A model generated the notes under the pieces. The model worked only from the letters and a program-made list of their open reading frames with translations. It ran no database searches and was not told the origin of the DNA. The position numbers and the translations under genes are program-made. Positions 27,376 to 55,661 of a DNA stretch of 58,108 nt are shown piece by piece. The first letter of the stretch is position 1. Each line of letters starts with the position of its first letter. This DNA is from a virus. The stretch lies in IMG/VR virus record IMGVR_UViG_3300014961_000001, positions 1 to 58,108 of that record; one strand, given 5' to 3'.

Positions 27376-28463
27376 TAGGTTAAATCCTCTATTTTGGGTA
27401 ATAAAACAGTAGTGGTTGTGTTCTTGTCCTCTTGTCTAACAAAAACAGCCTTGTTGAGTATTGATTTTCGCAAGCCTAGACTGTCTGCGTGAGAAGCATG
27501 TGCAAGCCAAGAGTTAATGGATGCCTGGATGCGCTTTGCCTCAATCCTGCCCTCGTTGTACTGTTTCTTCATAAACCTTATTTTTCGGTAAATTCTAGAA
27601 ATTGAGCTTTTTCTTACACGTCGATGAGTGGGCCACATTTGATAGCCAAGGAAATCCAATGCTCGTCCGTTCTTGACGGACACTGGAAATATTTGTGTTT
27701 TTGCATTGGTTTGGAGCTTTAGCTTCTCAAATAGGAATCGCTCTACATCAATGCGTAAATGACGCAAGTGATCCTTGTTGTGATGAAAGATACAGAAGTC
27801 ATCCATATATCTCAGATAGTGCTTCTCACATAGTCGGTATTTGACATACTCATCCAGCTCATGCAGATATATGTTTGCAAATAGCTGTGATGTTAGGTTG
27901 CCGATAGGTATTCCAACACCGCCACCGGATGATTCTATGATGTCGTCAATCAGGGTAAGGAGTTGTTTGCATGATATTTTCTTTCTGATCAGGCTTTTCA
28001 TGATCTCATGATCAATACTGTAGAAGAATTTGGATATATCTGCCTTGAATGCGTATAAAACGCCATGGTTTCTTAGTACCTTTTGCATCATGCGTTGTGC
28101 TTGATCTGCGCCAACATGCGTACCTTTATTAACTCGGCAAGCATAGCTGTCGTCAATAAATCGTTTTTCCCAGATGGGTTCAATAACCAGCAAAATAGCG
28201 TGCTGTACGACCCTATCCCGAAATGGAAGTGCTGCAACATCGCGCTCTTTAGGTTCGTATACTTTGAAAATTCGATACTCACCTGTCTTGTACGTTCCCC
28301 AGATCAATTCGTTCTGTAATTGAATCAGGTTTTCTTCCAGATTTAATTCAAACTTTAAGACTTCACGCCGATCACGCTTGCCGCGCCGGGCCTTCAAATA
28401 TGCGTTATACAAATTTTCAAAGTCGTAAATCTGACTAAACAGATTGTTGTATGTAATTGCCAT
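27375..28463 (-). CDS. DGR-type reverse transcriptase (362 aa)
   Basis: RT motifs FRDRVVQHA, FKADISKFFYSIDH, IPIGNLTSQLFANIYL (the IGxxxSQ signature of DGR RTs) and RYMDDFCIF (YxDD). TR lies immediately upstream. Confidence 0.9.
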   Translation of the reverse strand: MAITYNNLFSQIYDFENLYNAYLKARRGKRDRREVLKFELNLEENLIQLQNELIWGTYKTGEYRIFKVYEPKERDVAALPFRDRVVQHAILLVIEPIWEKRFIDDSYACRVNKGTHVGADQAQRMMQKVLRNHGVLYAFKADISKFFYSIDHEIMKSLIRKKISCKQLLTLIDDIIESSGGGVGIPIGNLTSQLFANIYLHELDEYVKYRLCEKHYLRYMDDFCIFHHNKDHLRHLRIDVERFLFEKLKLQTNAKTQIFPVSVKNGRALDFLGYQMWPTHRRVRKSSISRIYRKIRFMKKQYNEGRIEAKRIQASINSWLAHASHADSLGLRKSILNKAVFVRQEDKNTTTTVLLPKIEDLT

Positions 28464-28619
28464 GTATATCTCAAAATAAAAGCGGCATAAGTTTTCGCAA
28501 ATTGCTACTCAGCTATGCCGCCTGTTTAGTTTTTTAGATTTTCATCTAAGGAGTGTGCATCCTTTTAAAGTGTTCTGTCCTAATCCCCATTAGGGATTAA
28601 GCTTCTGACACGCTCTAAG

Positions 28620-28731
28620 AGCTGGACGCGCCCCGATATTCGTATTCGTGTTCGAACGAGCGTTATTCAAGTTCAAGGCGAACACGCCAGCATTGGCTGC
28701 GTTGTTCCAACTGCCGCCACGGATGGGAAGG
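28620..28731 (-). repeat. DGR template repeat (TR)
   Basis: A 112-bp match to VR at constant offset +564. In frame it encodes an AAC/AAT-rich stretch: LPIRGGSWNNAANAGVFALNLNNARSNTNTNIGARPA. Confidence 0.9.
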
Positions 28732-28754
28732 GACCGTCGTTGTAACGCACACCC

Positions 28755-29099
28755 CTATTTGCCTACGGCAAATACTTTGATCCAGCCGCCTACCATGCGG
28801 CCAATCTCATTGTTCAGTCTGGACCAGTGTTCATACTTCTTAAAATCAAGATAGCCTAATTCTTTTGAAATTCGAACCTGAGCGCGTAATAGGTCTAGCT
28901 CTGCGTCTAACTCTTGTAGTGTGGTTTTTTTGTGGTAGCGCTTATTACAAACAACAATCAACCTCAATATCCCCCACATGACCTGCCTCATTTCTGCTGC
29001 AAGCACATGCTTTTCAAATTTTGGAAATTGACGTAATGCGATATAGCCATAGGCAATCATTTCTTCGCATTTTTGTCTGATTAATAAATCACTAGACAC
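28755..29099 (-). CDS. avd: Accessory variability determinant (Avd), 114 aa
   Basis: Small basic helical protein between the target gene and TR. The C-terminal EIGRMVGGWIK resembles Bordetella phage Avd EVGRILGSWI. GTG start. Confidence 0.8.
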   Translation of the reverse strand: MSSDLLIRQKCEEMIAYGYIALRQFPKFEKHVLAAEMRQVMWGILRLIVVCNKRYHKKTTLQELDAELDLLRAQVRISKELGYLDFKKYEHWSRLNNEIGRMVGGWIKVFAVGK

Positions 29100-29128
29100 A
29101 ATAAATCTCTACAAAACAAAATTAAGAA

Positions 29129-29146
29129 CGTGCGCTATCGCGCACG
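29129..29146 (-). promoter_or_regulatory. GC-rich hairpin or cruciform downstream of VR (7-bp stem, 4-nt loop)
   Basis: cgtgcgc-tatc-gcgcacg, 23 nt past the target-gene stop codon. The position is analogous to the homing-enhancing hairpin of BPP-1-type DGRs. Confidence 0.6.
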
Positions 29147-29168
29147 CATACAGATAACACAAGACAGA

Positions 29169-30554
29169 TTACAGATTAACGAAAGCTGGACGCGCCCCGA
29201 GATACGTACCCGAGCTCGAACGAGCGTTACTCAAGTACAAGGCGAACACGCCAGCACCGGCTGCGCTGTTCCAACCGCCGCCACGGATGGGAAGGCGCTC
29301 ATCAGTCATTGCTTTGAAGAAGTAATCACCGTTATATGAAGCGGTATTTTCAGTATGCGGATATAAACACAATGCTTTCAGTCGAGCTAAAGCTGCCGCA
29401 GTCACAGGCTTGGTTGTTGACAGGTTTCGGATACCGCCAAAATTAGACCCATTAATTGTGTAGTCTGCTGTGCCGCCATCAGCATACTTGATTGTGCCTG
29501 CCGTGGTTCCGCTGCCGTCCGGTGTGACCAGGTTGCCAGTTTCACCATTAATCGCTTTCCATTCAGTAGAAGCCGCACCAAGATCAATCGCTAGTTTTGA
29601 CGCATTATTGTCTGCAATAACCTGGATTTCACCGTTAAAAATACGCATTCCAGAATTCCATTCCCATACATTACCGGATAAATCAGCAATGCCGTTTTCT
29701 TTACCGTTGTGTCGCCACTCAACTGGGCTAGATCCAGTTAATGTGCGTGCTGACCCAGATGTATCACCCGGATTTAAGCCGTCCGCCCTGCGACCGATCA
29801 GCAATGGATTTTCTGAGCTTCGGCCATAGTATGTATTACCCATTGGCTGTTTATTATCTTTGTAGCATTGCAAGGCCACGGCGCTCCATTCAGCATTTGT
29901 GATCAAGTGATGACCATTGCCACACGCTCGTGCTGCTGCAAGAAAGTTTGTGTAGTTGGTGCTGTGCGTTGGTTCTACGTTTGGCAGACTGAGCAACTCA
30001 CCATTAACGATTCGACCCTGGTATGTCCCAATGAAGATTTCAGGCTTTTCCACACCGTCCACAATAAATGCCGGGTGTGTACCACTTAATGAAGCATCAA
30101 TCGTACTCATATCGTACTTTTGAATGATGTTCATGTAGGTGGGCTGGCCTTTAGCCGTGTATAAAACTGTCTGCAATCCACCGCTTGCTACCTCTACCGA
30201 TTGACGCAATGAGTCTTTGATCAGGATTGTTAATCCATTGGATGAGTTGGCAATTGCTGCCGCTTGTAGGGTACTGACTGGTTTATCGGTGTCAGATGTG
30301 TTGTTTACACTACCTAATCCAAGGTTTGATCGTGCCGTAGCTGCTGTGGTGGCACCCGTACCACCATTCGCAACAGGCAGGCCGGAAGCTGGCAAGACAG
30401 CGCCTTCTGCCCCACTATTCGCGCTATTTAAGACAGCACCCATTGCCTTATAGAGTTCAGTAAAGTTTGCATCCCACTTGGTGTTTGCGGATCTGTTTGT
30501 GTCACCGCCAACGCCCGAAGGAGCTATACCTGGTTTGAAGCTTTGTCTAGCCAT
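29169..30554 (-). CDS. DGR target protein: tail-fibre or receptor-binding protein with C-terminal C-type-lectin/FGE-sulfatase-like variable domain (461 aa from ATG 30554)
   Basis: N-terminal fibre motifs GGTGATTAATARSNLGLG and NTSDTDKPVS. C-terminal GNVWEWNSG and RGGGWNSAAGAGVFALYLSNARSSSGTYLGARPAF, ending 5 codons before the stop. The track start at 30581 is a TTG inside the terminator T-tract. Confidence 0.85.
   Translation of the reverse strand: MARQSFKPGIAPSGVGGDTNRSANTKWDANFTELYKAMGAVLNSANSGAEGAVLPASGLPVANGGTGATTAATARSNLGLGSVNNTSDTDKPVSTLQAAAIANSSNGLTILIKDSLRQSVEVASGGLQTVLYTAKGQPTYMNIIQKYDMSTIDASLSGTHPAFIVDGVEKPEIFIGTYQGRIVNGELLSLPNVEPTHSTNYTNFLAAARACGNGHHLITNAEWSAVALQCYKDNKQPMGNTYYGRSSENPLLIGRRADGLNPGDTSGSARTLTGSSPVEWRHNGKENGIADLSGNVWEWNSGMRIFNGEIQVIADNNASKLAIDLGAASTEWKAINGETGNLVTPDGSGTTAGTIKYADGGTADYTINGSNFGGIRNLSTTKPVTAAALARLKALCLYPHTENTASYNGDYFFKAMTDERLPIRGGGWNSAAGAGVFALYLSNARSSSGTYLGARPAFVNL
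29184..29295 (-). repeat. DGR variable repeat (VR)
   Basis: It differs from TR at 12 positions, all TR adenines on the coding strand. Its 3' end carries the GC-rich GGGGCGCGTCCAGC shared with TR (IMH-like), after which the two sequences diverge. Confidence 0.9.
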
Positions 30555-30565
30555 TTCTTTATCCC

Positions 30566-30591
30566 AAAAAAAAGCAGCCAATTAAGGCCGC
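30566..30591 (-). terminator. Intrinsic terminator or attenuator just upstream of the DGR target gene
   Basis: Minus strand: gcggcc-ttaatt-ggctgc (one G-U pair) followed by eight T residues. Confidence 0.6.
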
Positions 30592-41466: not shown

Positions 41467-41931
41467 TTAAACGGCGTTAGCGATACGATCTTTTAAGATC
41501 TGGTTGTACTGACGCATGTGGAACTGCTGACGTGTCATAAAGATCCATTGTTCATCTGTGATGAAATCAGGCTTGCGTTCAGCATCCAGGGTTTTATTCA
41601 AAGCATCTAATTTAATCTGAAGCTCTGCTTGTTCCAGCTTCACACGATCCAACCAGGTAGACGGCGCTGCTTTGTAGTTCTGCTGGAATACTTCATCTGA
41701 ACATGGGTAGAAGTCAGTGTCGTTCTGCATAATGATCCAGTCACCGCGATTAGCCTCAACCTGACCATGTACGCCGTTCAGGTAAATGCTTTCTTCGCCT
41801 AAACTCGCTTCAAGGCTTCCACCGACAAAATCAGCAATCTTGTCCTGTGCTTCATCCATTGAGATGTTCACATCATCCCACTGGTATTGAATAGCGGTAA
41901 TTTCAATCGGGTTTTTAACGTATTTATTCAT
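41467..41931 (-). CDS. Hypothetical early protein (154 aa)
   Basis: ORF with a small N-terminal beta-domain (RGDWIIMQNDTDFYPCSDEVF) and a C-terminal coiled coil. Confidence 0.5.
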   Translation of the reverse strand: MNKYVKNPIEITAIQYQWDDVNISMDEAQDKIADFVGGSLEASLGEESIYLNGVHGQVEANRGDWIIMQNDTDFYPCSDEVFQQNYKAAPSTWLDRVKLEQAELQIKLDALNKTLDAERKPDFITDEQWIFMTRQQFHMRQYNQILKDRIANAV

Positions 41932-42431
41932 TCTGTAATCATCCAGTCCGATGCAAATAAGTCACCAGCGGAAGGAATCCACCCCATGATGATCATGCCC
42001 TGTGCATTTTTGAGTGTGATACACGGCGCAACTTTGGCAGATCCACCGTTCTGACGTGCAAATTCTGCGTTATGTGGCGACCAGAAGTTACCAGCTGCAA
42101 CGTCCTTGGTTTCAGGGCATGAGATAGAAAGCCACTGATCCGCGCCGTTCCAGCCCTTACGTGTAATCTTGTCACCCTGCTTAAGCAGCTCTAATGCTTT
42201 GCTGAATGAGAAATACGGCGATACCCCTTTAATCCAGCCATGTTTAAGGCCGTGCCGTACCGCTACATCAAAAGCATTATCCTCTGCAATCAATGGATTA
42301 AAGTGAGTGCCGATTGCAACGGCGTTGTCTTTAAGCACCAGTGATACTCGGTATTCCTGTTCGCGGTCATAAAATTTAGATACCATATCTTTGATGTGCG
42401 CTCTGATCTGGCGCTTTAGTTCAATACTCAT
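41928..42431 (-). CDS. DUF2829 (Tad2-type) domain protein with about 70-aa N-terminal extension (167 aa)
   Basis: The C-terminal half FSFSKALELLKQGDKITRKGWNGADQWLSI...ITLKNAQGMIIMGWIPSAGDLFASDWMI matches the DUF2829 pattern (ALExLKxGxKxxRKGWNG ... DLLAxDW), recalled from memory. Confidence 0.65.
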   Translation of the reverse strand: MSIELKRQIRAHIKDMVSKFYDREQEYRVSLVLKDNAVAIGTHFNPLIAEDNAFDVAVRHGLKHGWIKGVSPYFSFSKALELLKQGDKITRKGWNGADQWLSISCPETKDVAAGNFWSPHNAEFARQNGGSAKVAPCITLKNAQGMIIMGWIPSAGDLFASDWMITE

Positions 42432-43084
42432 TCATTGTCACCAGTGCTACGGCTTTGTAGCGGTGTGTACTGATCAAGGCTTGCTTTTTGATGTTCTTCT
42501 AGTACAGCTAATCGACAATTATTGGCTTCTAATTCGAGTCGCTCATATTCCGTCATCATTCGAGAATCTAAGCTGTGAAGGCGTGTAATGTCTGCCGATG
42601 TATGTCCATCCCACTCAGGCGCACGATCCAGCTCTGCAACATTGAATGAATCCCAGAACTCCATCTTGTAGTGATAAGTGAAAGAGCCTTCTGGTGTATT
42701 GATCCCGACAATAAAGTAATTCGGGTACATGGTCCCATCATCATGAAGCTTGGATTTCCATGCGTGAGATTTATTCTGGTGGCATATCACCTTGAACAAT
42801 TCCATTCTATGCGCGTACAGCTCTTGAAAAGTGTGATAACCGTCCGTTAATTGGCTCGGATTCACAATATTTGGCGCACCAATGGCAGAACGGACAAAGC
42901 AGTCCTTCGCTTCAAGCATCTTTCGTAACGCCGTGGACTTCTCTGGTCCATCAGGCAATTGCTCATTAAGTAGCTGTGCGGTATGTGCTATGACCATGCT
43001 CACGTTTTTCAACGGCGCTGGTAAATGTGCGTATGCAAAATACTGCATGATTGGATTTTCTTTATTGACTTGATCGGTAGGCAT
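42428..43084 (-). CDS. WDGH-motif phage protein with a separate helical N-terminal domain (218 aa)
   Basis: DGYHTFQELYAHR ... APEWDGHTS core. The N-terminal roughly 70 aa (FAYAHLP...LRKMLEAKDCFVRS) looks like an independent small helical phage domain. Confidence 0.5.
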   Translation of the reverse strand: MPTDQVNKENPIMQYFAYAHLPAPLKNVSMVIAHTAQLLNEQLPDGPEKSTALRKMLEAKDCFVRSAIGAPNIVNPSQLTDGYHTFQELYAHRMELFKVICHQNKSHAWKSKLHDDGTMYPNYFIVGINTPEGSFTYHYKMEFWDSFNVAELDRAPEWDGHTSADITRLHSLDSRMMTEYERLELEANNCRLAVLEEHQKASLDQYTPLQSRSTGDNE

Positions 43085-43110
43085 AGTTTCGACCTGTAAT
43101 TATTTGAAAT

Positions 43111-43140
43111 AAAAAAACCCGACTAATGGGAGCCGGGTTT
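43111..43140 (-). terminator. Intrinsic terminator (minus strand)
   Basis: aaacccg/cgggttt stem followed on the minus strand by seven T residues. Confidence 0.7.
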
Positions 43141-43357
43141 CCTGTTGAATGGTTCTTTTTGCGCTGAAAAATTCAACTAAACTAAACGCCTTAAGAGCAA
43201 TTACTGACTAACGCCGTTAAGAATGTCCAGAATAGATTGGAATATATATAAACGGCATTTGAAAATCAAGTGTGTTTTTTATACTCGTTTATATTTACTT
43301 ATAAGTTTTCAATCATATTTATTTGAAAATTTGATTGATTAATATTAGTATTCTCTT

Positions 43358-43451
43358 GTCTTGAGATTGCTCTCGGTAGTTGAATTATTCACTACACTCC
43401 TATTATCGCAAAGAAAACCCCTTTACCCATTTCGGCAAAGGGGTTTTTTTT
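43358..43451 (+). ncRNA. Candidate small RNA of about 94 nt (promoter TTGAAA-17-TAGTAT to a strong terminator), antisense-complementary to the repressor RBS
   Basis: The -35 is at 43323-43328 and the -10 at 43346-43351. The terminator stem 43418-43443 is followed by eight T residues. There is no ATG or ORF in between. Bases 43395-43410, cactcctattatcgca, are the exact reverse complement of 49734-49749. Confidence 0.45.
43418..43451. terminator. Strong bidirectional intrinsic terminator
   Basis: cccctttacc/ggcaaagggg stem (one mismatch) with T8 on the plus strand and ttttctt on the minus strand. It ends both the 158-aa gene and the candidate sRNA. Confidence 0.8.
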
Positions 43452-43467
43452 GCCCAAAAATTATGAT

Positions 43468-43944
43468 TTAAGTTTTAATTTTGTAGACTTCTTGTGAAAT
43501 TGTTTCCATTTGTCTCTCTATCTGGTTTAGGCGATATACTAAAGACTGTAGCTCCGCCGTCTGGCTAAATTGAGAAGAATTAGAGTTTTCTATTTTATAA
43601 CCGTTACTTATAAAAACTTTTAGTCTTGTATATTTCTCATTATAAATACCTAGCAAATTAGTATGATTTAATCGAAGCCGGTGCATATCTGAATTGATCA
43701 TCCTAAAATAATCGTCTGAGCCATGCACAAAAAGTATTGGTAAGCTCATAAACGATAAACCGTTCATACATAAAGCTATATCCTTATTCATTTCATGATC
43801 ATGAAGCAATTCATGCACAAATTTAAGGTGAAATTGCGGTGACATTTCAATTGCTGCTACCTCAAAAGGGCTATTTAGCATCGTATCTGATATTTTTTTG
43901 ATCAATTGCGGCATAACTTTGTAAATCCCAAAACTTATATTCAT
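43468..43944 (-). CDS. Hypothetical 158-aa protein in an AT-rich, terminator-bracketed moron-like unit
   Basis: ORF with its own upstream AT-rich region and downstream terminator. No family was recognised. Confidence 0.55.
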   Translation of the reverse strand: MNISFGIYKVMPQLIKKISDTMLNSPFEVAAIEMSPQFHLKFVHELLHDHEMNKDIALCMNGLSFMSLPILFVHGSDDYFRMINSDMHRLRLNHTNLLGIYNEKYTRLKVFISNGYKIENSNSSQFSQTAELQSLVYRLNQIERQMETISQEVYKIKT

Positions 43945-44101
43945 TTATATTTTGCATGTTATATCGTGCTAAAAAATTATGCTTGACAATTTGCATCATG
44001 GGGTTAATTCCTAAAAAGTAGGATTAACCCTGATTTAACCGGGTGGATATTGGTTAAATTATTGTTTTTAAATAAAAAATCACGGCGTTAATTAAAATCA
44101 T

Positions 44102-44124
44102 TAAAAAAGGCCCGATGTGGGCCT
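44102..44124 (-). terminator. Intrinsic terminator after the 29-aa peptide ORF
   Basis: Minus strand: aggccc-acatc-gggcct followed by tttttt. Confidence 0.7.
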
Positions 44125-44148
44125 ATTTTGATGGTTGGTTTTGGCAGA

Positions 44149-44238
44149 TTATGCCAATCCAGTTGAATGTAAATAGAAAGCCAGAAATATGCCGCTGACT
44201 GAACCTAGTGTAATAAAAACCGCTAAACTTTTGTCCAT
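44149..44238 (-). CDS. Small hydrophobic peptide (29 aa), absent from the ORF track
   Basis: MDKSLAVFITLGSVSGIFLAFYLHSTGLA forms a single TM-length hydrophobic stretch and is followed directly by a terminator. The RBS is weak. Confidence 0.4.
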   Translation of the reverse strand: MDKSLAVFITLGSVSGIFLAFYLHSTGLA

Positions 44239-44285
44239 TTCTCTAAATGCCGTATTTGATGATTAAATGATCATATATGATTTTT

Positions 44286-44837
44286 TCATTCTTTTGGCTC
44301 ATGATCGCCATGGAATCCCTTGTTCTCATACTTATCATGATTGCACTTAAAGCAATGCAGTCGATTAAAGCCTTCTTTGTCACTGACAATTGATTGCCAA
44401 GGCTCACCACAATTGCATGTTCCATGCAGCATTGCTGCCAGCGACTTGCTTTTCCATTCCTTTAGTTCCTTTTTAAGGTCTGCAATCTGATCCTGTTGCT
44501 CGTGCATCTTGCCCAGGTATCGCTGATTTTTGATATTAAGCTCATCAATAATCTCTTGCTTCTTATCCAATAACGTAAAACTTGGTGGTTTGCCTACTGG
44601 TGGCTTCATAAGGCTGCCGCCGTTGTCTGTATACCCCACACTTAATAACTGGGCCTTTAAGACATCAATTTTATCGAGCATTTCGGACTGGGCTTTGGTG
44701 TCGTATGCCACAAGTGCCGTAAGGCCGTCTATCTTCACCTGCTGTTGGTCCCAAGCTGCTTGCCATGCCATAGCAGCGTTATATTGAATACCCTTGCCAG
44801 CTTTCCATTTGCCGAAGGCTTCTTTTGACTCATTCAT
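44286..44837 (-). CDS. Hypothetical early protein (183 aa), coiled coil plus C-terminal Cys/His cluster
   Basis: ORF. The C-terminus CNCGEPW...CFKCNHD suggests a zinc ribbon. Confidence 0.5.
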   Translation of the reverse strand: MNESKEAFGKWKAGKGIQYNAAMAWQAAWDQQQVKIDGLTALVAYDTKAQSEMLDKIDVLKAQLLSVGYTDNGGSLMKPPVGKPPSFTLLDKKQEIIDELNIKNQRYLGKMHEQQDQIADLKKELKEWKSKSLAAMLHGTCNCGEPWQSIVSDKEGFNRLHCFKCNHDKYENKGFHGDHEPKE

Positions 44838-45009
44838 TATAGTGTTCCTGTGGTTTATCTAACCTTGAATCCCTTAATTCTTCAGCATTTGGCACATTGG
44901 CAGTGGTGCATGGTGTAGATATACCCATCGGATACGGTGTGGCGCACCAACTTAAATGGCGGTTGCCATTGGTGTGAACATAGCCCAAGGATCTTGAGGA
45001 TAAAATCAA

Positions 45010-45174
45010 TCACTTCATATTCCCCAGTATGCGTATATCTCTCTCACATACATTTCGCATAGCGTTTACCAGCTCAAGCAATGCAGTACCCGATTTATCT
45101 GGAACAATTTGTTCGGACAGCTCTAATAAATACTCTAAATCGTCTTTTACTATCTGGATCTGGTCCTTAGTCAT
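45010..45174 (-). CDS. Hypothetical 54-aa protein, absent from the ORF track
   Basis: ATGA stop-start overlap with the upstream gene. Sequence: MTKDQIQIVKDDLEYLLELSEQIVPDKSGTALLELVNAMRNVCERDIRILGNMK. Confidence 0.45.
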   Translation of the reverse strand: MTKDQIQIVKDDLEYLLELSEQIVPDKSGTALLELVNAMRNVCERDIRILGNMK

Positions 45175-45485
45175 TGGCTGGCTCCTTTTAAACTTGGCAA
45201 CTCATCTACGAATTCCATAACACACTCAGTATTCCCACCCGCATAGCTAAAATGATCTTTAGTTAATTCACCCTCACCATCTCTTTTTGAAGCTTCAAGC
45301 AAATCGCGTTTTGTACCTTCTGTGAATTCAATAAACCACTCACTTTCACATTCTGCATTACCACGGATCCATTCAATCTTAATAAATGGAATACCTTTTT
45401 TATTTAGAGCGGATTTAATTTTTCTTGTGCTCATCCCTTTTACTCCTGTGCTTCGACCATGGCTTGATAAATGTGCTTGATACAT
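45171..45485 (-). CDS. Hypothetical early protein (104 aa)
   Basis: ORF in the leftward early operon. Confidence 0.5.
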   Translation of the reverse strand: MYQAHLSSHGRSTGVKGMSTRKIKSALNKKGIPFIKIEWIRGNAECESEWFIEFTEGTKRDLLEASKRDGEGELTKDHFSYAGGNTECVMEFVDELPSLKGASQ

Positions 45486-45808
45486 TCATCGTTACTTAAA
45501 CCCATTTCATAAGCCCCGATTAGTGTTTCGTGTCCTATCTTTAGCATTTCAGCTGTCGGCTCTTTCGGCACCAAAACAAAACCTTCCGGCACCGCTTGGG
45601 CTTTGGCTTGAGCCAGCGCTTCACCCTGATTCAAAAGCATCTCATCAAGGGTATTTACCTGAGCTTTCATTTGCTCGATCTTGCTAAACATGCGCTCAAC
45701 AATTTCAGTAAATGTGCAGCCTTCCATATTGTGATCTGCACCAAATTTACAGAGCTTGTGAATCGTTTTTAAGCCTTCGATTTCTATCTTTTCTGGATTT
45801 TCCATCAC
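45440..45808 (-). CDS. Hypothetical early protein (122 aa), Ead/Ea22-like C-terminus
   Basis: The VPEGFVLVPKEPTAEMLKIG motif is typical of Ead/Ea22-type phage proteins, recalled from memory. Confidence 0.45.
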   Translation of the reverse strand: MMENPEKIEIEGLKTIHKLCKFGADHNMEGCTFTEIVERMFSKIEQMKAQVNTLDEMLLNQGEALAQAKAQAVPEGFVLVPKEPTAEMLKIGHETLIGAYEMGLSNDECIKHIYQAMVEAQE

Positions 45809-46023
45809 GCCACCTCATATCTATGCGCTACGTCATAACAACGCTGAATCTGCGGTTTAAACCGTTCCTTGTAGCAAGCCTTGCAGTTGGCATCTAAACA
45901 AGGCGAACCATCTTTTTTCTTGCGACCAGTGCCAAAGAAAAATTGCTTTGTTGCAGGGTAGTAGTCACCGCAGGTAATGCACTGCTTTTCAGTACCAAGC
46001 TCTGTTTCGATGTACTTAGCCAT
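45805..46023 (-). CDS. Small zinc-ribbon protein (72 aa from ATG 46023)
   Basis: CITCGDYY ... CKACY cysteine pairs. The ATG overlaps the upstream stop (ATGA). Confidence 0.5.
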   Translation of the reverse strand: MAKYIETELGTEKQCITCGDYYPATKQFFFGTGRKKKDGSPCLDANCKACYKERFKPQIQRCYDVAHRYEVA

Positions 46024-46190
46024 CACGCCACCTTTACCAAATTAACCTGACGATGCACTTCTATAAATTTAGACATCATCGAATTGTCCGGATCATTCAC
46101 AAAAGATTTGCCGTATTTGAGCCGCTGTAGGCTGAACAATTTGAATCGTTCAATTTCGGCAATCAAGGCTTCTTTATTCTGAGTGTTCAT
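46023..46190 (-). CDS. Hypothetical 55-aa protein, absent from the ORF track
   Basis: MNTQNKEALIAEIERFKLFSLQRLKYGKSFVNDPDNSMMSKFIEVHRQVNLVKVA. It fills the 46027-46173 gap and has overlapping stop and start codons at both ends. Confidence 0.45.
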   Translation of the reverse strand: MNTQNKEALIAEIERFKLFSLQRLKYGKSFVNDPDNSMMSKFIEVHRQVNLVKVA

Positions 46191-46473
46191 ATGATTCCTG
46201 TAATGCTGGTATATCTATTAATTCAACGGCGTAGCCTATCCCTTTATAGAAATTAGCTACACGCGACCAGTGGTATTCATTCGCGCTTTCCCAACGTAAT
46301 GGCCGTCCGTTGTTGTGGTTGGTGTAGGTTAGGCAGAAATATCTGTCCTCTTTATTTCCCTTCTTGTAATAATTGCGAAGCTCACCGTTTAGAATGAAGG
46401 CAACTTCTGCGCCGATCTTCTGACCGAAGCGAATAGTCTTGCCTAGATCATAGGTCATCAAATAAGCTCTCAT
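46174..46473 (-). CDS. Hypothetical early protein (99 aa)
   Basis: ORF in the early operon. Confidence 0.5.
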   Translation of the reverse strand: MRAYLMTYDLGKTIRFGQKIGAEVAFILNGELRNYYKKGNKEDRYFCLTYTNHNNGRPLRWESANEYHWSRVANFYKGIGYAVELIDIPALQESYEHSE

Positions 46474-47053
46474 TTTCTTCGCGTCTGTACTGAATCGCGT
46501 GTCTTTTTACCTTCTGTAGTGCGCTTTCTAGGTCTATTTGGATTTGTGCTAGGGTAGACGTTAAAAGCTGATCATAGTGTCCGCAAGATTGGTGATACCA
46601 CTTACGGTCCAAGTCTTTACGCAATGGGAATCCATACTTCACTTTTTCAGCCCAGGTCTGTGCTGGTGCTGCCCTCCCGGTTCCATTACACACGGTACAC
46701 TTCACGCCTGATATTTTCCCTAGTGCCTGGCATGACTTGCACTTTCCTCTTGGATGAAAGTGAGCATTTAAAACAGCCTTGGTTACACCATAAGCAAAGT
46801 CTAAAGACTCTACTTTTTTTGATTTAAATTTACGCTGGCGCATTTCCTGCAATACCAGTGATTTAAAATAATGATGCAGTAATTCCATGTTGTAAGCACG
46901 GCGCTGTTCAATCATTGCGTATATGTACCAGCTATGTTGATCCGGCAATGAGGCCAGTACGCCACATAGATCTGTCACATCAAGCAACGGCGCATTGCCG
47001 CTGCTTTTGAATGAAGCTGTCTTAGCATTTAGCCTTGCAAACTGCTCTAACAC
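46448..47053 (-). CDS. Zinc-finger regulatory protein, possibly a Q-type antiterminator (201 aa)
   Basis: The CKSCQALGKISGVKCTVCNGTGR double CxxC motif resembles the phage 82-type Q family. The late operon contains several internal intrinsic terminators. However, the gene is not adjacent to the late genes. Confidence 0.35.
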   Translation of the reverse strand: MLEQFARLNAKTASFKSSGNAPLLDVTDLCGVLASLPDQHSWYIYAMIEQRRAYNMELLHHYFKSLVLQEMRQRKFKSKKVESLDFAYGVTKAVLNAHFHPRGKCKSCQALGKISGVKCTVCNGTGRAAPAQTWAEKVKYGFPLRKDLDRKWYHQSCGHYDQLLTSTLAQIQIDLESALQKVKRHAIQYRREENESLFDDL

Positions 47054-47614
47054 TTAATTAACTCCGTACGCTGGTCTATGCTTCTGTGCTTCCATGATTG
47101 CGTCAGGTACGCTGCTATCTATCTCAATGGGTTCTGGAACCAATCCGCTATCTTTACGCGCATTAAAAGCCACAATAAACATTTCAATCATGTGTAGTGC
47201 TGCGCCTTGGTTTACTTGTTCTGTGGTGAATGCCAGACGTGAAAAGCCAAGGATCTGAGCCATGTTGTACTTTTCTAGGTCTGCTGAATAACCCTTATGT
47301 GTTGTGTGTCGGCTTTTTCCCTTGGTTCCGCCTTCTACTTCGACCAGTAAGTGATATTCAGGCAGGTAGAAATCCGCCCGGTGCTTTGTCATTGGGTTGA
47401 ATTGAAACTCACGCTTAAATTTAATTTGGTTTACCTGTAGGTGGCGTGCAAGCGTTTCTTCCCCAATACTTCCTAATTGAGATAGTTTTGCTCTTAGTGT
47501 GGTATTTGATTTCTTAACCAACTTCTTCGCTTCTGTTGCGGTCATACGTGTCATTTTGATATTCCTATGTGTTGTGTGTGGTGGATCAGCTTGCCGACTG
47601 ATTAACGCGCTCAC
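47054..47614 (-). CDS. PD-(D/E)xK endonuclease, Vsr/DUF559-like (186 aa; an alternative start at 47554 is likely)
   Basis: RADFYLPEYHLLVEVEGG...H...D..KYN pattern. Confidence 0.45.
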   Translation of the reverse strand: MSALISRQADPPHTTHRNIKMTRMTATEAKKLVKKSNTTLRAKLSQLGSIGEETLARHLQVNQIKFKREFQFNPMTKHRADFYLPEYHLLVEVEGGTKGKSRHTTHKGYSADLEKYNMAQILGFSRLAFTTEQVNQGAALHMIEMFIVAFNARKDSGLVPEPIEIDSSVPDAIMEAQKHRPAYGVN

Positions 47615-48167
47615 GAAACGCTAAGTAGTTTTTTAAGAAAGTGCGTATGTCATCTGCACGCTCTTGGTTTTCTTGTCTGCCGATCTTGCAAAGCAAGCAA
47701 TACTTTTGATAATGGTAGTGATCTCGCCCCTCTCCATTCTTCGGTGTTCCTATGGATGTTCGGTACATAGCAGTCCCGTGCTGGGGACAATCCATAACCA
47801 TGTATAACTTGCCCTCATTAAAAGCACGTCTGGTTGTAGCCCCTTTGGTTGGTAAATTTAAATCCGGGTCTAAGACTTCGAGCAAAATATCCTGCCCTAG
47901 ATAATCTACTTTCGAAAAAACACGTTTAGGCTTGTTTGTATCTCGATTTATAGCTGCATCAGCATCAGGCTTTTTAATTAAAAACGCTCTTAAGTCCTGA
48001 TTATCCACGTTCTTGCAAAATACCTTTTCCATGCGCTTAACCAGCGCTGTCTTTTCGTTCTGTAGTAATGCCAGATATGATGTATTTGCAGCATAACGAC
48101 TTACATCATTTCCTGTTGCTATGCGGTATTCCTGCACCATTTTAAAAAAGCCCATGCGACTAATCAT
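47586..48167 (-). CDS. Hypothetical early protein (193 aa)
   Basis: ORF. Cys/His residues CPQHG...YCLLCK may bind zinc. Confidence 0.5.
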   Translation of the reverse strand: MISRMGFFKMVQEYRIATGNDVSRYAANTSYLALLQNEKTALVKRMEKVFCKNVDNQDLRAFLIKKPDADAAINRDTNKPKRVFSKVDYLGQDILLEVLDPDLNLPTKGATTRRAFNEGKLYMVMDCPQHGTAMYRTSIGTPKNGEGRDHYHYQKYCLLCKIGRQENQERADDIRTFLKNYLAFRERVNQSAS

Positions 48168-48853
48168 GCTGCTAACCCATTTTCTGCAAGCAGCTTGGCG
48201 CGTTTCTCTTTCATACGCTTAAAGATGCCTTCACAAATCTGGGACCTGAACTCTGTTTCACAACTCAACGTAGCTTTTGAATCAAAGACTTCATAATCAT
48301 GGCTATACTGCTCGTCCAGGTGCGCCGCCCATTCCTCTGTAAGCCCTCTCCATTGGGTTTTAATACCACCTTGGCGCTTATGGTAGAACTTGCCGTACTT
48401 CAGGCCAGACATAAAAACGGCGAAAGGAATTGGCTGATCTTTAAAATGCTCACGGTACGGCTTCACGGGGACCACGACACTATGATCATCAACCAATCTG
48501 GCCTTACATGTAATTTCAATCTTGAAGTTTTGCGGCTCCGGGATCAGGTTTTCACGCAATGCAATGATTAGATCCCCTTTGTACGCTCCTTGTAGTACGT
48601 GTAACGGCATCTTACCTCTGTTGTTTTCATCAATCCCATTGAAGGCGCAATACAGGTTTAATGTGGTTTCTGCGTCTTTTAGGTCCCACTTCATATCCAA
48701 ATGATATTTTTTAGGCTGTGGTAGTGATGAAAGATGCTTGGCCATACCGTCAAAGCCGACCAGTGCTGCATATTCAGGTGAGTTGTGAACAAAGCCGACA
48801 TTTTTAGGCTTGTATGCCTTTTTACGGTTTTTAGGTTTTTGCTTAATAGCCAC
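48164..48853 (-). CDS. Hypothetical early protein (229 aa)
   Basis: ORF with a 4-nt overlap with the downstream gene. Confidence 0.5.
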   Translation of the reverse strand: MAIKQKPKNRKKAYKPKNVGFVHNSPEYAALVGFDGMAKHLSSLPQPKKYHLDMKWDLKDAETTLNLYCAFNGIDENNRGKMPLHVLQGAYKGDLIIALRENLIPEPQNFKIEITCKARLVDDHSVVVPVKPYREHFKDQPIPFAVFMSGLKYGKFYHKRQGGIKTQWRGLTEEWAAHLDEQYSHDYEVFDSKATLSCETEFRSQICEGIFKRMKEKRAKLLAENGLAA

Positions 48854-49317
48854 TAGAGATATTCCTCGTATTGTCTATATGTCCACTTCAACAACCATGC
48901 AGCTTGAATGCGCTGCAACGGCGTTAACCATTGGTTGTTGGTGACAATGCCGTTTTGATTTAAAAGATTTATGCCGCCCTGGTGTTTGATGTGCTGAATT
49001 GAGATTTCGTCAATTCCTGACGGCACAAGCTCACTTGCACAACCCATACAGGGTGCATAAGTGACAACTGCCTGTGAATCTGGGAACCATTCATCGCAAA
49101 TTACAGTTTCAGCATGAATAACGTGCGGATCATGAATACCAGCAACACATTGGCAAGGCTTATCGTCTGCATGTTGGTTTACACCTACGGCCAAAATGGT
49201 TTTATCTCTAAATACAACAAAACCCACCTGACGCTTTTTGCAGTTACTACGCTTTGCGACCCTTTCAGCAATCAGCATTGCGATATGCTTCATTTCAATC
49301 ATTGAATGACCACTCAC
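48853..49317 (-). CDS. dCMP/cytidine deaminase family protein (154 aa)
   Basis: Zinc-binding motifs HAETVIC and PCMGCASEL. Confidence 0.75.
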   Translation of the reverse strand: MSGHSMIEMKHIAMLIAERVAKRSNCKKRQVGFVVFRDKTILAVGVNQHADDKPCQCVAGIHDPHVIHAETVICDEWFPDSQAVVTYAPCMGCASELVPSGIDEISIQHIKHQGGINLLNQNGIVTNNQWLTPLQRIQAAWLLKWTYRQYEEYL

Positions 49318-49618
49318 GCGAACGGAAATAGATCCAAAGCGTTTCTATTTCCTCATCACTGGCACAGCTAACTGTTCGCTGAATTGCTTTTAGGCGTGCT
49401 GTAGATATGCCGGTGTTTTTTGAGTGAAAAGGGTGATGCACAGAAAAGAAAAGGTGTGTTTTGATCAGCTTTTCCTTGCTTTTGCGCTTTTCCTCAGACG
49501 GGACTTCCTTAATCTTGCCGCCAGCCTTTAAAAACTTCTCTAAGTCAGTTTCTAGGCTTTCACGAAATATTTGCTTTTTTGCTGGGATGGTAATCATGAA
49601 TAAGGGTTCACACTTCAT
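49295..49618 (-). CDS. First gene of the leftward early operon (107 aa from ATG 49618), possible Cro-like or regulatory role
   Basis: It is divergent from the repressor gene. The codon at 49622-49624 is TGT on my reading, so the track start looks unsupported. No clear Shine-Dalgarno or HTH was seen. Confidence 0.45.
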   Translation of the reverse strand: MKCEPLFMITIPAKKQIFRESLETDLEKFLKAGGKIKEVPSEEKRKSKEKLIKTHLFFSVHHPFHSKNTGISTARLKAIQRTVSCASDEEIETLWIYFRSREWSFND

Positions 49619-49628
49619 AAACAAAAAT

Positions 49629-49648
49629 GTGGCATAAGGTTATGCCAC
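49629..49648. promoter_or_regulatory. Inverted repeat gtggcataa-gg-ttatgccac in the immunity switch region (operator or leader hairpin)
   Basis: Arms of 9 bp. On the minus strand it is followed by atttttgtttt and then the early-gene ATG. Confidence 0.5.
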
Positions 49649-49698
49649 CAGCTTAGAATATTACTATATTTATACTTTATCAATAATAATATTTATAT

Positions 49699-49727
49699 TT
49701 GTGAATACATAAGCCCTATCTATAAAA
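49699..49727 (+). promoter_or_regulatory. Candidate repressor promoter TTGTGA-16-TATAAA
   Basis: The -35 is at 49699-49704 and the -10 at 49721-49726. The predicted start near 49733-49736 would give a roughly 22-nt leader. Confidence 0.35.
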
Positions 49728-49756
49728 TAGAGCTGCGATAATAGGAGTGACCATTA

Positions 49757-50482
49757 ATGATTGATAGATCCATGCGCGAAGCCGTAAAGCAGAGCGAAGC
49801 AGAGAAACTAAGAGAACTTTACGAACTGAAAAAAAGCGCGGACAAGCAAAAGGGTCTAACTTTCACTCAAAGAACCATTGCGGATCTAGGTGATTGGACG
49901 CAGCCAAACGTGTCTAGCTACTTGAAGGGTGTTGTAGAATTGAAAGAAGAATCAGCTTTGATTTTTTCTAAAGCCTTAGAAGTTCCTGTTTCCGCTTTCT
50001 CCCCACGGTTAGCTGAAAAAATCTCACAGCGCGAAATGCTGGCACGTAATCCATTGTTGAGTAAAGTCACTGTGTCTTATGTACCTAAGCTAAATGCGGA
50101 AGTCCTAAACAAGATTAGACATAATCTAAGAGATCAGAGCTTTATAATGCCCAATTCTTCCGAAACGACCCCTATTTGCAAAGAATTATCCCAAACCGCA
50201 TTCTCTTTTGAGCTGGAGGACAACTCCTTAGAGAAATACGCACCAGGCACAATCTTTGTTGTAGACCCAATGGTCGAGCCTTCACCTACCGACCTAGTGT
50301 TTGTTGGGAATAAAAATAAAGATAGCGATTTTCATGTCCGTGAATATTGCGTGAAAGATGTTTCAGAAGACGGCGTAGAGTCTTATGAATTAAAGGCAAG
50401 CAACCCAGCCTACCCAACACTAAAAGAAAACTATGAAGTGCTGGGTGTGGTGGTCGCTGCTGTGAACATGCTTAAACCATAA
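49757..50482 (+). CDS. CI-like repressor (241 aa): N-terminal HTH and C-terminal S24/LexA-like domain
   Basis: AGGAG Shine-Dalgarno. HTH segment FTQRTIADLGDWTQPNVSSYLKG. The C-terminal DNSLEKYAPGTIFVVD ... YELKASNP resembles the Ser/Lys dyad context. It is divergent from the early operon. Confidence 0.7.
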   Translation: MIDRSMREAVKQSEAEKLRELYELKKSADKQKGLTFTQRTIADLGDWTQPNVSSYLKGVVELKEESALIFSKALEVPVSAFSPRLAEKISQREMLARNPLLSKVTVSYVPKLNAEVLNKIRHNLRDQSFIMPNSSETTPICKELSQTAFSFELEDNSLEKYAPGTIFVVDPMVEPSPTDLVFVGNKNKDSDFHVREYCVKDVSEDGVESYELKASNPAYPTLKENYEVLGVVVAAVNMLKP

Positions 50483-50537: not shown

Positions 50538-50795
50538 TTGGCTTAATAAAAGTTATTTAAAAATATTTTTATTTTTATTTATGTTTTTTACATAAGCCAT
50601 ATCAGAATAAATTCTAAATACCAACATAATTATAAATAAATATAAGAAAACTGTTGCATTTTATAAACGTATTTATATATTATTGGGAGGTAATAAAAAA
50701 GCCAGTGCCACACATAGCAACACTGACTTAGTTTGAACGGTTGGCCGGCAAGCCTTCACGTTCTGTTTGATCCACACACATAGGATACAAAACTC

Positions 50796-53748: not shown

Positions 53749-55077
53749 CTATGTAGCCAGAACATTTATACCGTTATCAAGCATCACTCTTACCGGCTTC
53801 ACGTTTTCAGCCATTGCCACCTCAAGTATCTGATCTCTAGTGAGCTTACCACCCTTGGCTACATACTTGGCATACAAAGAATCGGGTAGTTTGAACGGTT
53901 TTTGCGTGGTTTCTTCACTCTCATTGCTCTCAACACCAGAATCGGTAGGCGTATTTTCGCCTGTACTACCCACTACTGGCGTTTTATTAAATTTATTGGG
54001 TGTGAACCCTGCTAACTTTAAAACGTCCAAATACGGCGCAAATAGACGCTTTCTGAAATCACCAGCAATACGTTCTGCCAATACTTCGGTTTTTTGCCCT
54101 GCAATAACCAATTTACCCAGCTCAGAATATCCAGGCTCACCCTTTGAAGCATTCACAGCCAGGCTAGATGAGAACATTTTAATTTGCTCATCTGTCATTT
54201 GATGGACTACAAATTTATCCTCCTTCCTTGTCTTGGTCGCTGGTGTCACATTGATTGTTTCATTGTCGTATCTGTCGTATTCAAATGAAAAAGACATAAT
54301 TTTCCCAGAGCGTCCTTTTTTTGCTACGGCCTTTAACCCTATAAACCCTGTGTGCTTACTGATCTGTGCCACGGATATATTGATTACACGCTTTTTAAAA
54401 TCACTCATTACCGTGTATTCATCAGCCTTAAGTCCATATAACGTGCGGATTTCATCCACCGTAAATGTTGGCTGAAAGTTTGCCCTGCGCCACTTCATTA
54501 AAACTTTATAAAGTCTTATTGCATATTTGCTTTTCAGCCTACCCACCTCGTTTATGTCCAGTAGGGTATATGCTGTTTTAATATTGTATATGTGCGGTAT
54601 AACTGCTGGGGCGAACATCAAAGTAACTTCGCTTTTCCCTTCTTTGGCTAGCTGAAATTCCGCACTTTCCTTGGGCAGCTCAACATCATCAAAGTCGCTA
54701 AACTCATCATACTCCGAAGCAGATGCTTCAATGCTTGTTGAGTGCAACCATCGGCTTCTCATTAGCTTTTTGGTTCCATCTTCACGATCAATAAAGTAGG
54801 TAAATGACCTTTTGTAAATTGTATTTTTTGCTTCACACAACGTATAAAACGCCAATTGACGTGAAAGGCCATATTCTTTAGCAAACTGATCCGCTGTCAG
54901 AATGATTTCTGTTTTTTCATCAAAAGGGATGCCGCGCTCACCCATTTGATTTACAAGCTTACTTGCCAGTAGGATGATTTTTTGTTCACTTGCTTCCATT
55001 CTATACAGTGAGTCAATAAGCGGATTCCCTTGCTTAACAAGGTTCAAATGCTCTATTTCATCAAGAGATAACGTCAT
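53749..55077 (-). CDS. rep: Plasmid replication initiator (Rep_3/RepB-like winged-helix initiator, 442 aa)
   Basis: It lies adjacent to iterons. The N-terminus NLVKQGNPLIDSLYRMEASEQKIILLASKLV and the internal YAIRLYKVLMKWR are typical of iteron-binding initiators. Confidence 0.75.
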   Translation of the reverse strand: MTLSLDEIEHLNLVKQGNPLIDSLYRMEASEQKIILLASKLVNQMGERGIPFDEKTEIILTADQFAKEYGLSRQLAFYTLCEAKNTIYKRSFTYFIDREDGTKKLMRSRWLHSTSIEASASEYDEFSDFDDVELPKESAEFQLAKEGKSEVTLMFAPAVIPHIYNIKTAYTLLDINEVGRLKSKYAIRLYKVLMKWRRANFQPTFTVDEIRTLYGLKADEYTVMSDFKKRVINISVAQISKHTGFIGLKAVAKKGRSGKIMSFSFEYDRYDNETINVTPATKTRKEDKFVVHQMTDEQIKMFSSSLAVNASKGEPGYSELGKLVIAGQKTEVLAERIAGDFRKRLFAPYLDVLKLAGFTPNKFNKTPVVGSTGENTPTDSGVESNESEETTQKPFKLPDSLYAKYVAKGGKLTRDQILEVAMAENVKPVRVMLDNGINVLAT

Positions 55078-55290: not shown

Positions 55291-55661
55291 ATCACCCCCA
55301 TTGAAAGCCCGTCATATCAATACTCTCAGACCTCTGAAAAGAAGAAAGGTTTTAGAAAGATATTAGAAAGAAGAAAGGAACCAGTTTTTTTATTATAAAT
55401 TTGAATTTTTGAATGTTTATGGACTATTTTTAAACCATTTTCATTGAGATTAATAATTAATCTATCTATAAAAGTGATAAGTGATTTCAGCTTAGGCAAA
55501 TAATATTTATTTATTATAAAACAAATATTTATATTCATTTATATTTTTTCTGTCAAATAAGTGTCCCTATCTAAAGCTACAAGCCTTGCATTGTTTGGAT
55601 ATACAGGTTTAATTAAAAATATAAGCAATTTTTATAATTACTAAGTTTATTTATATTTATC

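Follow-up and report, generated by a model that had tools for sequence, protein, structure and literature searches.

The DNA analysed here (IMG/VR virus record IMGVR_UViG_3300014961_000001, 58,108 nucleotides (nt), the whole of which is referred to below as the window) is a replicon of ~58 kb in which phage and plasmid genes are combined, i.e. an Acinetobacter phage-plasmid. Its early operon (49624 down to 43468) and late operon (starting at 43084) both lie on the minus strand, and the 383-bp intergenic region that separates them (43085-43467) holds the subject of this study, a plus-strand unit (43323-43451) predicted to encode a small RNA (sRNA) that could pair with the messenger RNA (mRNA) of the element's CI-type repressor.

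The predicted RNA unit and the repressor leader

The original prediction, made from the DNA letters of the window, had placed in this region a promoter, a strong terminator and a non-coding RNA of about 94 nt, and each of these was recovered here. The promoter scan returned a −35 element TTGAAA (43323-43328) and a −10 element TAGTAT (43346-43351) separated by a 17-nt spacer, and the predicted transcript starts at a G located 7 nt past the −10 element and extends over 94 nt of the plus strand (43358-43451; 89.7 bits with covariance model R1, described below). In the minimum free energy fold of this RNA (−28.4 kcal/mol, z = −4.5) two 5′ stem-loops (43362-43375 and 43376-43395) are followed by a single-stranded seed, CACUCCUAUUAUCGCA (43395-43410), that contains the anti-Shine-Dalgarno sequence CUCCU and has a mean probability of being unpaired (P(unpaired)) of 0.87, and then by a Rho-independent terminator (stem 43418-43443, T8 43444-43451), such that the seed lies unpaired between the 5′ hairpin domain and the terminator. 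The terminator was overlooked by a simple terminator scan and recovered by folding. It is bidirectional, with its own T-rich tail on the minus strand after the stop codon of the open reading frame (ORF) at 43468-43944, and also ends the early operon; the RNA is convergent with that operon, shares its terminator and has no plus-strand gene downstream. A U7-8 tail and an A-rich tract ahead of the terminator are present but are not diagnostic of an Hfq-dependent sRNA (in which a 3′ U tail and an internal U-rich or ARN motif would be expected), the A tract being also explicable by the bidirectional terminator.

No ATG-initiated ORF starts within the unit, as originally stated; a 39-aa ATG ORF (43223-43342) overlaps its left edge and a 36-aa TTG ORF (43361-43471) spans the RNA, neither of them conserved in homologues. 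Searching 43000-43550 against Rfam 15 gave no family at gathering score or at E values up to 10, the best sub-threshold matches scoring 21-24 bits against cut-offs of 50-90. Several other candidates in the same region were rejected. The second promoter of the original prediction, TTGAAA-15-TATACT (~43260-43286), is present as a sequence but not supported: its spacer is 15 nt, the scan did not return it, it is not conserved in the closest relatives (which read TTTAGA), and it overlaps the −35 element of a conserved minus-strand promoter. On the minus strand, a small ORF in which the 16-mer would serve as Shine-Dalgarno sequence (AGGAG) ahead of a GTG and a 15-codon frame loses both Shine-Dalgarno sequence and frame in relatives L001 and L007, and a promoter TTGCGA-16-AATAAT (43411-43384) is unconserved in L001 or L011.

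The proposed target is the leader of the repressor gene (49757-50482, plus strand), which is divergent from the early operon and separated from it by a control region of 132 bp. Its 241-aa product comprises a helix-turn-helix (HTH) domain and an S24-like C-terminal domain, and is matched by PHROG 4 ('transcriptional repressor', E = 2e-14), weakly by Pfam HTH_3 and Peptidase_S24, and in tblastn by annotated CI-like repressors at 26% identity over 92-94% of its length. A PRM-like promoter, TTGTGA-16-TATAAA (49699-49726, plus strand), was read from the sequence and has a predicted +1 at ~49732-49735; the promoter scan also lists an overlapping TTGTGA-18-TAAAAT, and relatives keep TTGTnn-16-TATAAR with the +1 placed 1-3 bases before a GCGA. 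The target site, UGCGAUAAUAGGAGUG (49734-49749, plus strand), extends in the 5′ untranslated region (UTR) from approximately the +1 to just past the Shine-Dalgarno sequence. The original prediction was correct in placing it at the very 5′ end of the leader and in identifying AGGAG (49743-49747) within it; the spacing to the ATG is 9 nt rather than 8. With transcription starting just before GCGA the 5′ UTR would be only ~25 nt long, so that the RNA would cover nearly all of it, AGGAG included. No significant intrinsic structure was predicted for the 5′ region of the repressor mRNA (z = 0.29).

The complementarity between the two sites is exact: CACTCCTATTATCGCA at 43395-43410 (plus strand) is the reverse complement of 49734-49749, 6.3 kb away on the same strand, and these are the only two matches in the window even when 3 mismatches are allowed. 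The match is of exactly 16 nt, its flanking bases being unpaired, and the resulting duplex (−28.4 kcal/mol) is the best non-self site on either strand of the whole window; by far the strongest duplex of the RNA is that with its own antisense. When the full RNA is cofolded with the first 70 nt of the repressor mRNA the seed duplex is retained, with a net gain of −22.9 kcal/mol. A chance probability well below 0.01, as first estimated, holds for a pre-specified 94-nt segment, but does not hold for a match picked from the whole window, which contains 5 distinct inverted exact matches of at least 16 nt (16-18 nt) where a first-order Markov model predicts 0.5 (P(≥1) = 0.39); for this reason the 16-mer alone is not compelling. 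Inverted 16-mers being not rare in the window, the region might have no functional RNA at all, the match having arisen by chance and the real features being just the late promoter and a bidirectional terminator, which the early operon needs anyway. This explanation has to be judged against related elements.

Conservation and co-variation in related elements

Relatives were gathered by means of the repressor and of the 158-aa protein encoded by the final early gene, from A. lwoffii genomes, IMG/VR, ENA metagenome assemblies and Logan assemblies, and provided 19 distinct homologues of the RNA, from Acinetobacter phage-plasmids with repressors of 48-100% identity, with 15 genomes holding both the RNA and the repressor leader. 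Their loci are syntenic, and Rep3 is present wherever the retrieved stretch extends into the plasmid part. Covariance model R1, built from 13 sequences (alignment A1) that did not include L019-L024, finds exactly one strong match per genome, located between the last early gene and the late operon and on the strand of the repressor; this includes the distant L019-L024. Further scans added no relatives: in IMG/VR the 14-mer seed gave at least 120 chance matches, and model searches of the 80 loci listed gave a score for none but the contig already known, whilst metagenome scans with a repressor profile and with a 19-mer of the late leader returned none.

All 19 homologues have a promoter of the form TTGAnn-17-TAnnAT, in which the first two T of the −35 element and T1, A2, A5 and T6 of the −10 element never vary, as against just 51% identity in the spacer and ~40% in the flanks. 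A working sigma-70 promoter would be expected to combine invariant key bases with a divergent spacer in this way. The homologous RNAs are 80-97 nt long, and 15 of the 19 begin with a G at the seventh base past the −10 element. Every one folds with a hairpin at its 5′ end, a seed left unpaired (P(unpaired) 0.84-1.00) and a terminator hairpin followed by a U tail, even where the 5′ hairpin sequences differ (the first hairpin of L002 is an inverted version of that in the window), and the alignment fold contains compensatory pairs in the 5′ hairpin region as well as 9 terminator pairs with compensatory changes. There is no ORF conserved among the 19, several of which are without any ORF longer than 6 codons. 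On these computational grounds the predicted RNA is a conserved, non-coding gene with its own promoter and terminator. A chance origin of the window's match is hardly credible in the face of complementarity, promoter and architecture that are kept, with compensatory changes, down to 48% repressor identity, in loci too divergent to be near-duplicates of a single element (compared with the window, the 158-aa protein is 41-92% and the repressor 48-99% identical).

Complementarity between seed and repressor leader is found in 15/15 genomes, and runs from the conserved GCGA by the predicted +1 into the Shine-Dalgarno sequence. Pairing is perfect over 16 bp in the window, L002 and L003 and over 14 bp in L019, and reaches 21 bp in L001 (with two G.U) and L004 (with one G.U); it consists of 14 bp plus 6 bp across a bulge in L007, 20 nt with one mismatch in L011, 10 bp plus 4 bp flanking one mismatch in L020, 13 bp with one U.G in L021, 11 bp plus 5 bp flanking one mismatch in L022 and 11 bp in L024, and is weaker in L010, L013 and L023. 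The duplex covers the Shine-Dalgarno sequence in 14/15 genomes and extends to the start codon in several. Energies of cognate pairs range from −17.8 to −31.3 kcal/mol in the first 9 genomes and from −17.8 to −32.7 kcal/mol across 12 representative pairs, and when both strands of the available 16-58 kb were scanned the repressor translation initiation region (TIR) was the best non-self site in 11/15 genomes and near-tied best in a twelfth.

Variable positions of leader and seed have changed in concert. In target/seed order, the window clade has GAUAAUAGG/CCUAUUAUC, the main group GAAGAUAGG/CCUAUCUUC, L019 GAAGAAAGG/CCUUUCUUC, L020 GAAAAUAGG/.UAUUUUC and L021 GCGAGAA/UUCUCGC, whilst L022 has two such changes, GAUUGG/CCAAUC and GGUAG/CUACC. 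This was examined in a gap-free concatenated alignment (A3) of 12 distinct leader/seed pairs, using a 20-pair intermolecular helix and 500 shuffles. Paired cells amounted to 86.3%, compared with 76.5% in the shuffles, none of which was as high (0/500), and 10 of the 20 intermolecular pairs have compensatory changes on both sides. The covariation score was 0.291 against 0.131 when shuffled (0/500) and at most 0.123 when the register was slid; the mean duplex energy was −26.0 kcal/mol for cognate and −20.0 kcal/mol for non-cognate partners, and 0/20000 partner permutations reached the cognate mean. On this computational evidence the seed and the repressor leader co-evolve across the 15 related genomes. 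The originally proposed pairing of a same-strand RNA with the repressor 5′ UTR and Shine-Dalgarno sequence, for which conservation and co-variation in relatives had been named as a check, is accordingly well supported, since promoter, +1, length, hairpin, seed and terminator are kept in 19 homologues and the seed co-varies with its target in 15 genomes.

Concordant change would also be predicted if the two 16-mers were DNA elements, namely twin binding sites of one protein, their identity resulting from protein specificity. The invariant GCGA core fits such a reading, as does the recurrence of an AT-rich motif, ATTTATAT, in both regulatory regions, where shared DNA signals do therefore exist. 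The element is, on the other hand, not palindromic, and within the 14-bp core the transition-type discrepancies, seven in number, are without exception G.U and never A.C. This is expected for a plus-strand RNA pairing with an mRNA and not for a shared DNA site; it is this orientation test that is informative, the comparison of 7 wobbles with 10 mismatches in the core being only suggestive. One copy, moreover, is always in the unpaired stretch between hairpin and terminator downstream of a conserved promoter, the other spans the +1 to the Shine-Dalgarno sequence of an mRNA, and the paired stretch varies from 11 to 21 nt without fixed borders (21 bp in L001, 20 nt with one mismatch in L011). We consider twin protein-binding sites decidedly improbable.

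Proposed action on the repressor

We propose, with a probability of roughly 75%, that 43323-43451 is the gene for a trans-encoded non-coding RNA of ~94 nt that occludes the ribosome-binding site (RBS) of the CI-type repressor. The RNA would be made from its own sigma-70-type promoter, ended at the Rho-independent terminator, and folded into a 5′ hairpin domain, a single-stranded seed of ~16-20 nt and a terminator hairpin. The seed would pair with the first 16-20 nt of the repressor mRNA, from the mRNA 5′ end through the Shine-Dalgarno sequence, and the duplex would block 30S binding and lower repressor synthesis; decay of the repressor mRNA may follow pairing. With no structure in the repressor 5′ region to be opened, RBS occlusion would be the simplest outcome. 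The RNA would then be a negative, pro-lytic or dose-limiting input to the lysis-lysogeny switch, a role that might be termed 'anti-immunity'. We infer from the sequences both that the RNA is transcribed and that it represses, rather than activates translation or stabilises the mRNA.

Several points weigh against this proposal. The case for the RNA rests wholly on sequence. The genomes compared are related, with the consequence that the shuffle controls overstate significance, and the number of independent compensatory events is ~7. Specificity is not strict: the GCGAAGA/UCUUCGC core and the Shine-Dalgarno/anti-Shine-Dalgarno pairing are shared, and non-cognate pairs for this reason still reach a mean of −20 kcal/mol. 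The perfect 11-bp stretch of L024 stops at the first G of the Shine-Dalgarno sequence, and pairing is weaker in L013 (−17.8 kcal/mol, two G.A mismatches), L010 (−21.0 kcal/mol) and L023 (a 2x3 internal loop), in which the repressor TIR is not the top predicted site. Finally, a constitutive promoter would mean that the RNA is present in lysogens, where it would oppose their own repressor, and no conserved operator was found at the core promoter: a CI operator was sought at the sRNA promoter and none was identified, the spacer, the upstream 15 nt and the discriminator being poorly conserved (38-51%). The ATTTATAT motif sits beside the −35 element of the late promoter and not at that of the sRNA.

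Given that no conserved operator was found, the RNA may be constitutive and act as a dose limiter, a function that may be attractive for a plasmid prophage of varying copy number. Alternatively, the RNA may be controlled indirectly, e.g. by read-through of the convergent early operon, the transcript of which would be a perfect antisense to it. A promoter that may be active in lysogens is also compatible with a positive role, in which the RNA would pair with the repressor mRNA so as to protect it from 5′-end-dependent decay, or to buffer it, and thereby support immunity; the start of the duplex at or next to the predicted mRNA +1 would suit this. Coverage of the Shine-Dalgarno sequence in 14 of the 15 genomes, and of the start codon in several, nevertheless argues for repression, occlusion of this kind by sRNAs being a well-established repressive mechanism, and the leader contains no inhibitory structure for the RNA to open. 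A protective or buffering role is in our judgement very unlikely.

It is also conceivable that the RNA is real but has its main job elsewhere, as a cis antisense or agent of transcriptional interference against early-operon read-through, or on host mRNAs via its anti-Shine-Dalgarno seed, with repressor pairing secondary. The RNA gene converges on the early operon (43468-49624, minus strand), with which it has the terminator in common, a read-through transcript would be fully complementary to the RNA, self-antisense is by far its strongest duplex, and the gene lies directly upstream of the conserved unit formed by late promoter, leader and terminator. Many Shine-Dalgarno sequences are, moreover, potential partners of a CUCCU seed. 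However, covariation falls mostly outside the Shine-Dalgarno sequence (duplex positions 6-10 and 15-19) and tracks the repressor leader specifically, the seed matches nowhere else in the window even with 3 mismatches, and a purely cis role would require neither a single-stranded seed nor a match 6.3 kb away. We regard such a primary function as unlikely, albeit less so than the protective one, and occlusion of the repressor RBS remains the reading that we prefer.

A further, more tentative proposal, of which we are doubtful, is that the sRNA/leader pair serves as a module by which the switch of a plasmid-borne prophage acquires its specificity, either as a toggle or copy-number buffer or as an anti-immunity weapon. 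In the first version the RNA may form with CI a double-negative or copy-number-buffering circuit, in which RNA dose scales with plasmid copies and the repressor is held near the induction threshold. In the second, an incoming relative may shut off translation of the resident's repressor, from which residents would escape by matched seed/leader changes. The leader of the window clade (GAUAAU) is the worst paired by sRNAs of other lineages (−11 to −21 kcal/mol) and its own sRNA is compensated (−28.4 kcal/mol), a pattern expected from seed/leader diversification of this type.

Comparison with P1 c4 and P22 sar, suggested in the original prediction, holds as an analogy of logic and not as class membership. 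The c4 RNA of P1/P7 (immI) is a phage-plasmid RNA of ~77 nt that controls immunity through short complementarity to a ribosome-binding region. It targets the icd-ant (antirepressor) operon and so supports immunity, is co-transcribed with its target and processed, and pairs via two loop segments; P1/P7 heteroimmunity at immI results from matched changes in RNA and target. The present RNA resembles c4 in belonging to a phage-plasmid and in its proposed pairing at an RBS region, and the co-varying seed/leader pairs recall the matched changes at immI, but it differs in being provided with a separate promoter and terminator, in using a single linear, unpaired seed and in being directed at the repressor mRNA. 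It is not co-transcribed upstream of an icd-ant operon, and has no sequence or Rfam relation to c4. P4 CI RNA and N15 CA RNA, which are also small and come from satellite phages or phage-plasmids, take the place of protein regulators in immunity control or supplement them. They cause transcription of lytic or antirepressor operons to terminate prematurely, the immunity factor being the RNA itself. The RNA described here, in contrast, would oppose a protein repressor, and would do so at translation initiation.

Phage regulatory RNAs known in lysis-lysogeny circuits target antirepressors, cII, Q or lytic transcripts (PMC12197685). P22 sar covers the ant RBS, and lambda OOP lowers CII and favours lysis, i.e. 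acts in the same direction as proposed here (PMC12197685); as proposed for the present RNA, both are of phage origin and small size and reduce the synthesis of a switch protein through base pairing. They are, in contrast, cis-encoded on the opposite strand, fully complementary to their targets and directed at ant or cII, whereas here the target is CI, is 6.3 kb away and is paired over 11-21 nt. The RNA and its target are on the same strand and no gene lies opposite the RNA, so that only early-operon read-through could be antisense to it. Closer in form are the trans-encoded phage sRNAs of the Hfq type, lambda PreS/LPR1, DicF and VpdS of VP882, the last likewise from a phage-plasmid (PMC12197685), which share with it an own promoter, 5′ structure, a single-stranded seed and a Rho-independent terminator with U tail, and which use a seed to pair in or close to an RBS, as proposed here. 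The targets described for them belong to the host or are other phage genes (dnaN, ftsZ, host sRNAs), and do not include the phage's master repressor (PMC12197685); they have no sequence similarity to the RNA here. In silico, the unit has the properties of a trans-encoded sRNA, being independent and non-coding with a conserved single-stranded seed complementary to a distant target. In the literature, including the 2025 review PMC12197685, we found no trans-encoded sRNA with the RBS of a CI-type master repressor as conserved target, coverage being incomplete and this being absence of evidence rather than proof of novelty.

If confirmed, such an RNA would extend the textbook switch by a brake that acts on repressor synthesis after transcription. 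The Rep3 phage-plasmids of Acinetobacter in which it occurs form a family that has received little study, and whose members turn up repeatedly in genomes of A. lwoffii as well as in several assemblies of metagenomes and sequencing runs. The sRNA/leader system is short and well defined and natural compensatory variants exist, making it directly testable with reporter fusions, and the sRNA could provide a programmable handle on prophage induction.

Genomic context and other features

The nearest relatives of the replicon are entire contigs of 57-58 kb from Acinetobacter lwoffii. Plasmid-type functions are represented by a Rep3 initiator (53749-55077, minus strand), ParA (1051-1713) and a tyrosine recombinase (261-842). 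A phage-type block of large ORFs occupies 3254-40827 on the minus strand; phage-type features of the window include a CHAP-domain lysin-like protein and a reverse transcriptase, and the equivalent block of syntenic relatives contains a terminase and a P22-type portal.

The final early gene, which adjoins the RNA unit (43468-43944, minus strand), encodes the 158-aa protein used above. Searches of phage and plasmid collections with the DNA of 42800-44000, for near and distant similarity, gave no match, and neither did tblastn of the protein against phages. Its AlphaFold model has a pLDDT (predicted local distance difference test score) of 77, and Foldseek comparison with PDB and BFVD, in which a Q-like antiterminator was the idea considered, returned generic helical-hairpin matches at E >0.2.

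Back-to-back with the sRNA promoter is a highly conserved late control unit on the minus strand (43099-43269), the same region being present in 17 loci. It comprises a late promoter, TTGATT-17-TATATT (43269 to 43241), and a leader of ~124 nt containing a hairpin GTTGAAT...ATTCAAC, the loop of which (CAGCGCAAAAA) is kept in nearly all relatives, and a strong terminator (stem 43137 to 43118, T7 43117 to 43111) that ends 27 nt before the first late gene (43084). This arrangement looks like a unit of the lambda PR'-tR' type that needs antitermination. The first three late-operon genes (41467-43084, minus strand) encode a WDGH-domain protein, a Tad2-like (anti-Thoeris) protein and a crAss001_48/'Sequestin'-type protein. 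Together they probably constitute an anti-defence cluster, situated immediately past the late terminator.

On the other side of the early operon, a predicted leftward promoter (TTGATA-17-TATTCT, 49683 to 49655) has directly downstream a perfect 20-bp palindrome, GTGGCATAAGGTTATGCCAC (49629-49648), that is nearly invariant in relatives with repressors just 61-76% identical and could be an operator or the 5′ hairpin of the early transcript. The first early-operon gene (49295-49624, minus strand), in the position of cro, gave no HTH match; its product matches the RNA-polymerase-binding domain of SutA at a score just short of the threshold (PF20661, E = 8e-7; 28.7 bits, cut-off 29.3), and this match is seen in several relatives too. 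The AT-rich motif, ATTTATAT(T), recurs at 49660-49700, 43270-43320, 50560-50680 and 55500-55660 and in loci L001-L024. The immunity region has two copies at a distance of ~23 bp, of which the first falls within the early-promoter spacer and the second abuts the −35 element of the repressor promoter, and in most relatives 2-4 phased copies (period ~10-11 bp) stand just upstream of the −35 element of the late promoter, conserved at −81 from the sRNA +1. The motif may be an UP-element, a bent-DNA feature or a regulator site.

The four other inverted matches of 16-18 nt in the window are 2088-2103/2460-2475, 34615-34632/38063-38080, 8726/39629 and 46857/57043. The first represents two copies of one terminator hairpin (AAAAAAGCCAGCTTAATGCTGGCTTT) that flank a 99-aa ORF; the remaining three, including the 18-mer GCCATGCGTTACGGCGTG, are inside coding regions and could be due to chance. 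Within the phage-type block there is a complete diversity-generating retroelement (27375-30581, minus strand), consisting of a reverse transcriptase (27375-28463, Pfam RVT_1), an RNA of Rfam family RT-14 (28480-28621, 77 bits), a template repeat of 112 nt (28620-28731) and a variable repeat (29184-29295) located at the 3′ end of a 470-aa ORF (29169-30581); all 13 differences between the repeats (13/13) are at adenines of the template copy. An ORF of 1964 aa (19305-25199, minus strand) contains long arrays of degenerate 108-nt (36-aa) and 99-nt repeats, which suggests a repetitive fibre or tape-measure-like protein.

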